Part shown: in pieces, positions 6,123-8,110 of the stretch
Layout: each line of letters starts with the position of its first letter
How positions within the stretch are numbered: the first letter of the stretch is position 1
Assembly: GCA_963666285.1 (NCBI GenBank)
Contig: OY762711.1
Reading direction: 5' to 3' (one strand)
Length of the DNA stretch: 64,000 nt
Source of the DNA: Sedimentisphaerales bacterium
GTDB taxonomy: Bacteria; Planctomycetota; Phycisphaerae; Sedimentisphaerales; SM23-30
Notes under the pieces: model-generated
Told to the model about the DNA's origin: nothing
The model's input: the letters and a program-made list of their open reading frames with translations, nothing else
Database searches by the model: none
Made by a program: the position numbers and the translations under genes

Positions 6123-7286
6123 TTATTGCTCAATAATTGCAGCCTGCAGTGAAGTATCCGCATCAATATGTGTGTATCCTTGAACAACAACCATATCACC
6201 ATCATTTACCCCGTCGCTTACAACCAGATCATCCTGCCCGTAATAGCCCGCAAGCTTAATAAAACACTTACAGGCTTTCTGACTAGATTCAGAATAGAGC
6301 CATATAAAAGATTTCTCTCGCTCATTTAACACACAACTTTCAGGAACAGTTATTGATTGCCTCTGAGAATTATTCGGTTCTATAATTACGTTAGTACTCA
6401 TCCCAGGCATAATCTGGATATCAGACAAATTTGGCATGGAAAAAGTCAACCTGTACGTTTTAGTTACAGGATCAGAACCTATTTGCCATTCAACTAGTTC
6501 CGCAGAAAAAATACGATTAGAAAAAGCGGGAAACGTTACTGATCCCTGAAGATCTTGAGATAACTTGTAATCAGCAATTTTATTTTCCGGAACAAACACA
6601 TCAATTTCTAAAATTGAGATATCCTGAACAACCAGAACTGTTGTTCCGGCATTGACAATTTCGTAATTCTCGACGAACTGTTCGGAGACTATACCATCAT
6701 AAGGAGCCCTAAGTTCTGTATCCTGCAATTGATGCCTGGCTATTACCAACTGAGACTCCACTGCTTTCAATCCAGCTTTTGCAGCAGCCAAAGCGTTAAC
6801 TGCATGATCATAATTTTCCTGAGTAGTAACATTCTCATTAAATAATTTACTACTCCGCTTATAATCCTGCTTTGCATTCTCCAACTGAGACTGCACACTT
6901 TCCTTCTGAGCCATAAGAACAGCAATCCTGTCCTGAAAATCACGAGGATCTATCTGAAGCATTAATTGACCTTCTTTAACCATATCGCCAGGCCTAACAT
7001 CAAGCTTTACCAATGGACCGGAAACTCGAAATGCCAGCTTAGTTTCAACACTCGATCTTATTGTGCCAGGATAGGAACATGACTCGGCAATTGCATGAGC
7101 TTTGACTTTTAATACTGTCACAGGCATCGCTGTCGCAAAGTTTGCGGCATTGTTACTAAGTTCTTCACCTGCTTTTGCTGATGACTTATTAGCCGCAACA
7201 AAGACTCCAACACAAACTGATATCGCAACAATATAAATCACTACCTGTTTTACTAGCTGTCGAGTAGGCATGTCGCCTCCTTTCAT
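6123..7286 (-). CDS. RND periplasmic adaptor (membrane fusion protein); native start is ATG at 7981 (exon 1 = 7981-7978, exon 2 from 7258)
   Basis: N-terminal TM, LAFRVSGPL, LRAPYDGIV, IMPGMS; spliced N-terminus MKLVKQVVIY; unspliced alternative starts at 7286 and 7271. Confidence 0.93.
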   Translation of the reverse strand: MKGGDMPTRQLVKQVVIYIVAISVCVGVFVAANKSSAKAGEELSNNAANFATAMPVTVLKVKAHAIAESCSYPGTIRSSVETKLAFRVSGPLVKLDVRPGDMVKEGQLMLQIDPRDFQDRIAVLMAQKESVQSQLENAKQDYKRSSKLFNENVTTQENYDHAVNALAAAKAGLKAVESQLVIARHQLQDTELRAPYDGIVSEQFVENYEIVNAGTTVLVVQDISILEIDVFVPENKIADYKLSQDLQGSVTFPAFSNRIFSAELVEWQIGSDPVTKTYRLTFSMPNLSDIQIMPGMSTNVIIEPNNSQRQSITVPESCVLNEREKSFIWLYSESSQKACKCFIKLAGYYGQDDLVVSDGVNDGDMVVVQGYTHIDADTSLQAAIIEQ

Positions 7287-7977
7287 TAATTTAACAAATT
7301 CTGAGTTTCATTATATTTTGTGCAAGGAAACGCATGCCCCTCACTGAACCGGACTTGAAGATTTCCCTCATCCGGCTCTTCATTAATGCTCACTTTGACG
7401 GCTACATAAGGCAAAGTAATGTGCCTTGTAGAAGTCTCCGATAGAAGACGCTGTGGAACGTTCATGGTTTCTTCCAGTTCAGTGCCTGGCCAATATCCTG
7501 TTTCGCCTTTACACATTAATGCTGACCCCTTCGAGTGCCTCAAACTTCGAAACTCAACAGGCATTACCCTGTTTACTCCTCTACTATGAGTCAGTCCGAC
7601 TACCAAAATGCCATACGGCCGCGTCACGGTTTCAGCTCCTTGGCCGCTTCCTTTCGGAGCACTTCGGTTCTCCCAAGTTCCAATGCAGTCAGTTCGTTTG
7701 CCCGCTACGGACTCAGACCCCGGCTCGTCGATAGATGCTCGCCGTATTTCGCATATATCGATATTGGCTTCAGGCATATGAAAACCCTGGCCCGGATGCG
7801 ATAAGGAATAATTTCGGGGCTCAACACCTTCACTTGCGTTGTGGCTGACAAACTCCTTTCCCGGGGCTTCGTACAGTTCGTTACCTCTCTGCACGCCCGG
7901 TGCTGTAATGGGCGGGTGGCTAGCCCTTACCCATGCCGGATTGGCCGGCTTGACTACATTAGCTTCGCTTGGCGCTC
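7259..7977 (-). mobile_element. ORF-less group II intron (IIB-like, 719 nt)
   Basis: 5' GAGCG; EBS1 UCAUAU (7781-7776) in a stem-loop, complementary to exon end AUAUGA; D3-like GUCGGACUGACUCAUAGUA..GAAGGGGUCAG; D4 closed by CAUUAAUG; D5 GAGCCGGAUGAGGGAAAUCUUCAAGUCCGGUUC (7378-7346); D6 GAGGGGCAUG/CAUGCCU-A-CUC with bulged A at 7265; ends in AC; removal restores the host frame. Confidence 0.93.
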
Positions 7978-8110
7978 TCATATTTTATTTCCTTAAATAT
8001 TTTCTTTTCCAAAAACAACCACAGTATTTCAAAATAGCATAGCCCAAAGCCATCATTGATATTACTAATACAAACAAACTACACTATCATTCAAATGAAA
8101 TGCTTTATTC

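Follow-up and report, generated by a model that had tools for sequence, protein, structure and literature searches.

The stretch of DNA analyzed here (the window, 64,000 nt of contig OY762711.1 from a Sedimentisphaerales bacterium, assembly GCA_963666285.1) includes a 719-nt ORF-less group II intron, located at 7977-7259 on the minus strand, that interrupts the gene for an RND efflux periplasmic adaptor immediately after its start codon. We consider it reasonably probable that this is a mobile, RT-dependent intron that targets translation starts and limits the damage of its insertions by splicing and by a restart of translation following read-through.

The intron and its host gene

The first-pass annotation had proposed an ORF-less group II intron following a start codon, and this was borne out by Rfam matches above the gathering score to group-II-D1D4-6 (RF02005; 7944-7708, the domain I core, 112 bits) and to Intron_gpII (RF00029; 7380-7259, 52 bits), as well as by the presence in the genome of eight copies, 99.7-100% identical, whose differing flanks set the ends of the element at 7977 and 7259. 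The group II hallmarks found include the domain I core and domains V and VI (D5 and D6) with the catalytic triad and the bulged A. Domain V (7378-7346; Rfam match and fold) has a terminal loop of 5 nt, domain VI folds as a long hairpin (7343-7261) with the branch A at 7265, and the D5-D6 fold has an energy of -47.2 kcal/mol (z -6.4). Candidates for the γ-γ′ pair, a G in J2/3 and the intron-final C, were recognized by eye only. The intron starts with GAGCG and ends with AC. The departure of this 5′ end from the GUGYG consensus had been noticed before and is confirmed; since GAGCG, with its A at intron position 2, is also found in the RT-bearing relatives described below and in locus L196, it is, on comparative grounds, a natural variant of the 5′ end. 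The introns L053, L183, and L184 begin with GAGTG. The 5′ ends of L021, L024, and L158 read ATG-A/G-G-CAGCG, with a boundary or first base unlike that of the rest of the lineage.

Alignment to the RT-bearing relatives located in domain IV (D4; 7492-7385, approximate bounds) in-frame remnants of the N- and C-termini of the RT, and the position of the RT start reads TGG. An earlier suggestion that this domain keeps a short start-plus-C-terminus remnant thus holds with regard to the RT remnants and has to be amended with regard to the peptide MNVP..EEPDEG.., which is not a separate ORF. It is the end of a 231-codon frame opened by the host ATG (7981-7286), its Met differs from the RT start in the alignment, and EEPDEG.. 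is domain V translated as codons.

Removal of the intron joins the ATG-A of exon 1 (7981-7978) to the AG-CTA of exon 2 (7258-6123; TIGR01730, 236 bits) to produce a 379-aa RND adaptor, or membrane fusion protein, starting with MKLVKQ. An intron-less adaptor ortholog found in a genome of the same genus (378 aa, 51% identical) begins with MKLLSQIITY, which supports the initial view that splicing restores an intact protein. We infer that the intron splices from its intact motifs and from this ortholog; a joint skipping the whole intron was not found in the contigs of four of the six sequencing runs listed, a type of data that cannot show absence. Profile matches identified downstream genes for an RND permease (5818-2756), a TolC-family channel (2699-1353), and a TetR regulator (926-177), all on the minus strand. 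In genome G273 the TetR gene is located directly upstream of the adaptor gene (L272:810-1493). The sequence at 8011-7982 resembles a promoter, but sites of this kind are about as frequent as chance predicts (11 found versus 8 expected).

Choice of target and relatives in the genome

Sister copies had been predicted to follow ATG-N, and nucleotide comparison with the genome placed all eight after TATGA and before A. When a site is called gene start-like if at least 80 codons are open downstream and fewer than 40 upstream, six of the eight copies are at such sites, whereas genome-wide 661 of the 6256 TATGAA sites qualify (binomial 3e-5), and an upstream AAGG is present in seven of the eight versus 329 of the 6256. 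The frames resulting from splicing are 379, 512, 271, 515, 333, 153, 86, and 5 aa long. The invaded genes are unrelated (adaptor, transglutaminase-like, prepilin-type, GH16, esterase, and unknowns) and one copy is at a non-gene, which speaks against the regulatory role at the head of the efflux operon that had been suggested. Most of the invaded genes start with signal-peptide-like or prepilin-type sequences (MKK.., MKL..), and the spare start MPTRQ described below retains one basic residue.

The loop of domain Id3 includes an EBS1 (UCAUAU, 7781-7776; Rfam match and covariation) that complements the last six bases of exon 1, IBS1 (ATATGA, 7983-7978), which include the start codon. Among 49 introns with both ends, UCAU is present in the EBS1 loop of 33 of the 34 inserted at ATGA sites versus 3 of the 15 others; all five EBS1-IBS1 pairs are formed in 39 of the 49 and four of five in nine, with compensatory changes at the sites that are not ATGA. 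The insertion site is ATGA in 34 of 45 relatives, and ATG, GTG, or TTG plus one base in 42 of 45, a set for which both ends and the upstream bases were required, so that six loci whose 5′ end was not assigned and another lacking upstream bases were excluded. As far as sequences can tell, this covariation shows that the insertion after ATG-N is set by pairing of EBS1 with the start codon. A candidate EBS2 (UUCCUUA, 7808-7802) that complements ribosome-binding sites may in turn pair with that of the host gene (TAAGGAA, 7995-7989; candidate IBS2), to which it is complementary over 7 bp; in 47 introns cognate pairing scored 4.19 versus 3.61 for non-cognate pairing (0 of 10,000 permutations), a modest effect with variable spacing.

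The genome also includes two 1929-nt relatives, each with an intact 443-aa RT, which are 85% identical to the 719-nt intron over its 5′ part only. The need for an RT in trans had been pointed out, and these two relatives could be the helpers; recent multi-copy spread without an RT of its own, in a genome with a related RT, is consistent with a trans-mobilized intron. Their EBS1 is UCUUAA, and one of them follows TTAAGA and the other TTATGA. Both (G000:C1:910721-912649 and 5395339-5397267), with this altered EBS1, lie outside long genes and retain a weaker D6 site and ATG; the putative RT-bearing helper and the ORF-less passenger have different targets. A 648-nt sister (G000:C1:1613560-1614207), with a 71-nt deletion across domain III and many unique changes, is probably dead and may be a recombinant, as some of its 5′ states are in common with the RT relatives. 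The same contig includes another group II RT gene, unrelated to these, for which the match is split in two (G000:C1:3875242-3875864) and beside which there was no D5/D6 match among those listed, and two fragments of the RT-type intron, a 3′ piece (4809701-4809800) and a 50-nt 5′ piece (5748538-5748587). In sequencing runs X4 and X6, from a second study, contigs about 98% identical to the intron were found together with pieces resembling the RT relatives.

The spare start and the read-through frame

Domain VI includes a spare ribosome-binding site, AAGGAGG (7282-7276), and an ATG (7271-7269) located 13 nt before the intron end in the frame of exon 2 (MPTRQ-LVKQ). Both had been pointed out earlier, and the positions then given for them, for ATG-A (7981-7978), and for the bulged A (7265) were right; the claim is supported by the sequence and by the distribution of the signal, which is, judging from the relatives compared, a trait of the whole lineage. 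Relatives were gathered by a DNA search of 300 genomes of the same class, by an RT search (best 80 of 495), and by a D5-D6 pattern that retrieved at least three viral and at least 119 metagenome stretches. Because this pattern itself required the D6 ATG, the spare start can be tested validly only in the RT-picked set (best 80 of 495), in which the site and the ATG 13 nt before the end are present in all eight relatives with an RT 64-82% identical and in none of the four with an RT 51-59% identical. For the analysis of ends 80 of the 119 metagenome loci were used, and 107 3′ ends were found, 98 after removal of duplicates. A GGAG, AGGA, or GAGG core is present in 93 of the 98 D6 ends, the phase of the ATG agrees with the insertion phase, and 38 of 66 cases have 100 open codons in the frame that follows the ATG, versus 0 and 7 for the other frames. 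The spacing between site and ATG is 4 nt here versus a lineage peak of 7-9 nt.

An intron of the Caedibacter plasmid pKAP298 (L282, NC_005915.1) is assigned to the lineage by its RT (64.7% identical) and by its domain VI, which carries the same signal, and no long frame is found behind the ATG there; the RT as annotated does not span the whole of the match, and the 5′-end pattern found no match. Three internally deleted introns of 244-431 nt (L177, L197, and L202) still have the two ends, the location at an ATG, and the start in domain VI, which in some of them is followed by a long frame. A tail pattern of the sub-family was absent from 400 genomes of the phylum besides the present one and from the viral contigs.

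In the predicted fold of domain VI the spare site and its AUG are fully paired, the 5′ strand at 7330-7324 pairing with the site, and among 95 D6 folds (two from this genome) the site is paired in 83 and the AUG in 73. A free 30S subunit would find the spare site hidden while domain VI is in its splicing form. The original claim that the efflux gene can be translated spliced or unspliced needs qualifying, the site being buried in these folds, and is retained as a candidate only.

From the host ATG the intron can be read through domains I to VI as 231 codons with no stop (7981-7286), ending at a TAA (7288-7286) four bases before the spare ribosome-binding site. The frame is present in all eight copies, with homologous frames in other samples, and the other two frames have 14 and 20 stops. 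None of 5000 shuffles matched the 231 aa, a null that overstates the case because the conserved ribozyme core is naturally stop-poor in one register (stop rate 1.2% versus 6.5% and 6.4%). Within domain IV the remnants of the RT N- and C-termini are fused in this frame and the RT start is lost, and a TGA at the base of domain VI, found in most relatives, is missing in this sub-lineage. A further ATG in the frame of exon 2 (7286-7284) overlaps the final stop (TAATG); it is missing in L220 and L258.

We propose that EBS1 pairs with the start codon, leading to insertion after ATG-N, and that the candidate EBS2 would pair with the host ribosome-binding site. Spliced RNA would have the native adaptor gene rebuilt. 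In unspliced RNA, ribosomes coming from the host ATG would travel without a stop to a point 4 nt short of the spare site and, on crossing the 5′ strand of domain VI, would unpair that site and permit a restart at 7271 in the frame of exon 2 (MPTRQ..), with direct stop-start coupling at the ATG at 7286 as a possible addition. Coverage of RNA by ribosomes limits polarity on an operon, and intron RNA covered in this way may cause less of it. If this scheme is true, a single hairpin would serve at any one time either splicing or translation, and the insertion would be nearly neutral. The read-through peptide is probably junk.

A protein search produced 252 matching “proteins” that are translations of ribozymes, 120 of which were listed. 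Such a search detects called open frames only and is hence biased to open frames, and its clusters are related to each other. The ORF-less type of domain IV is found in 51 of the 120 clusters listed, and 45 of these 51, counting the query, share one and the same stop in domain VI; about 10 nonsense events would be expected from the 143 residue changes observed, and six of the 51 clusters end elsewhere. Their D4 regions are 70% identical and fall into four length classes, all of whole codons, and most of the clusters begin at an internal ATG near nt 104. P0002 (230 aa, 70% identical) is likewise fused to the host ATG, and P0048 has one compensated frameshift. L258, which is probably the same record as P0008, is 81% identical and keeps the frame over the 121 codons compared, with a probability of 0.10 of being stop-free by random change; substitutions with respect to it are flat over the codon positions (24/21/26). 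The stops common to the 648-nt sister and the RT relatives are both among the 17 differences from the 719-nt intron, which occurred in 0.4% of simulations, the direction of change being unsure. Of 11 variants inspected none creates a stop, but no more than 4% of changes would do so. A search for shorter proteins, with three matches that all have the same stop, adds little.

Lineage-wide selection on the frame was not detected. Across the lineage there is no avoidance of variants that create a stop (15/42 versus 14/50 and 20/44), of 28 net indels only 6 have a length divisible by three, and a 110-codon open stretch is present in 14 of 35 distant, more GC-rich control introns versus 27 of 47 lineage introns. 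ORF-less L023, L217, and L223 have no read-through frame, L207 is frameshifted in domain IV, the frame of L183 runs beyond the spare site, and that of the 648-nt sister is broken by stops. Most relatives have a stop at codon 5-37 and yet carry the D6 site, which does not, therefore, require read-through.

A “ribosome relay” across the lineage (a host uORF, the internal ATG near nt 104, and 131 codons into the RT start), an arrangement seen in 62 of the 120 proteins listed, is not put forward as a product of selection, given the neutral outcome of the near-stop and indel tests, the open stretch in 14 of the 35 controls, and the location of the ATG near nt 104 and the stop at nt 87 on opposite strands of one stem. 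Coupling from the RT stop to domain VI was rejected, as the frame stops before domain V in 55 of 62 rows. P0054-P0120 include 62 of the clusters listed, each about 131 aa long, that represent domains I-III in translation and end over the RT start; they are likely false gene calls, or else a leader coupled to the RT. In the RT-bearing L053 (1520-3504) the frame that opens at the host ATG runs for 154 codons and ends some 20 nt short of the RT start, an arrangement suggestive of RT synthesis coupled to the host start.

The furthest-reaching interpretation is an ORF-less ribozyme made translatable over its full length under selection, with EBS1 and EBS2 imitating the ribosomal signals against the start codon and the ribosome-binding site, host ribosomes led through the catalytic core, a domain VI opened by them, and mutually exclusive splicing and translation, a reading that we hold tentatively and with slightly more doubt than confidence; the chances that the read-through is functional appear evenly balanced. 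A different view, which we find unlikely and still worth serious consideration, is that start targeting and the spare start of domain VI are selected, the site opening by breathing or during transcription, and that the 231-codon frame is a by-product, due to a stop-poor ribozyme register and to RT remnants lying in frame, passed down within a single successful ORF-less family. The neutral outcome of the near-stop and indel tests, the open distant controls, the early stops of most relatives, the ORF-less counter-examples, and the 0.10 probability calculated for L258 are all in keeping with a by-product. Such an origin accounts less readily for one common stop in 45 of the 51 clusters listed with the ORF-less type, for D4 lengths that are whole codons, for the compensated frameshift of P0048, and for the inclusion of both stops of the sister and RT relatives among the 17 differences (0.4% in simulation, direction unsure).

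It is quite improbable that the host genes rely on splicing alone and that the purine run and ATG of domain VI are helix sequence that never acts as a start. Pairing of the site in 83 and of the AUG in 73 of the 95 folds and the short spacing of 4 nt in the present copy would be expected of mere helix sequence, but not the presence of the signal in eight of eight close and none of four outgroup relatives of the RT-picked set (best 80 of 495), the GGAG, AGGA, or GAGG core in 93 of 98 ends, the spacing peak at 7-9 nt, or an ATG phase equal to the insertion phase. Least credible of all, and very improbable, is that the intron is a domesticated regulatory switch of the efflux operon or that the 231-codon frame encodes a functional protein. 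The adaptor could have two N-terminal forms, and of eight variants at 7299-7571 in the sequencing runs five are synonymous, but near-identical copies are found at unrelated genes and at one non-gene, the ortholog has no intron, the 231-aa frame has no Pfam or NCBIfam match, and the substitutions versus L258 are flat (24/21/26). A functional read-through peptide was rejected on the last two grounds.

Relation to known introns and significance

In organellar group II introns the ORF may be in frame with the upstream exon, and ribosomes traverse ribozyme domains; the present frame differs in that it encodes no RT, crosses domains V and VI, and would restart the host gene. Translational coupling by unwinding of a hairpin, in which upstream translation exposes a hidden start, is also known. 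The RT begins near nt 480 in the relatives, the Rfam domain I match starts 33 nt from the 5′ end of the intron, and the weakest group II match of the 443-aa RT in the PDB is 6me0, which we take to be a CL1 RT.

A clade of the IIB1 (CL1) subgroup is described in excerpts of PMC12584367 as inserted at start or stop codons, with Avi.groEL and EcKTE56.groEL among its members. Like the members of that clade, as portrayed there, the intron at 7977-7259 is inserted at a translation signal, in this case a start codon; unlike them, it is missing the 300-700-nt 5′-subterminal insertion in domain I, the RT of its relatives (443 aa, Pfam RVT_1 only) has no endonuclease domain, and its copies are in many unrelated non-housekeeping genes rather than in housekeeping genes. 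The groEL introns of the clade supply a replacement stop codon (PMC12584367, same excerpts), whereas the present intron supplies a ribosome-binding site and a start in domain VI and has, in addition, the read-through frame. The absence of the insertion, the lack of the endonuclease, and the nature of the host genes place this intron outside the known IIB1 start/stop-codon clade. The compact ribozyme, the 5-nt loop of domain V, the presence of EBS1 and EBS2, and the lack of an endonuclease, shared by the 443-aa RT of the relatives, are features of classes E and F as outlined in parts of PMC3753933 and PMC3552965, in which start-codon targeting, a D6 start signal, or read-through are not described; the 5-nt loop fits both classes without distinguishing E from F (PMC3753933).

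Multi-copy ORF-less families that coexist with RT-bearing relatives with other EBS sequences have precedents in the introns TeI3 of Thermosynechococcus (PMC2882425) and dnaN of Trichodesmium (PMC12584367), for which an RT acts in trans. In an intron RT gene, some TeI3 copies lie between two start codons (PMC2882425), but TeI is IIB1, and neither a replacement start nor general targeting of host starts is described in the excerpts of these two papers. The excerpts of PMC3919590 report that spliced and unspliced RNAs of C.te.I1 of Clostridium tetani both encode protein isoforms; that is a single domesticated, alternatively splicing locus, in contrast to a mobile start-codon family. A D6 replacement start or a read-through frame is not described in the portions consulted of PMC4028801, PMC2882425, PMC8919778, PMC4424553, PMC3851717, PMC7923331, PMC3552965, and PMC3919590. 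A literature search for a start-codon intron with either feature yielded no paper among those covered, so that a prior mention is possible.

The start-codon intron lineage is a real, well-supported variant of group II intron behavior, to which the read-through feature is added. The lineage likewise accounts for a family of spurious “hypothetical proteins” (252 matches) and for wrong annotated N-termini. How introns colonize start or stop codons is stated to be unknown in the part of PMC12584367 dealing with it, and the lineage offers a readable answer for start codons, namely EBS1 against the start codon and perhaps EBS2 against the ribosome-binding site, as well as a way of residing in genes without silencing them. 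If the read-through is functional, a catalytic RNA would double as a ribosome track and would make a compact system for testing the competition between translation and splicing in bacteria.
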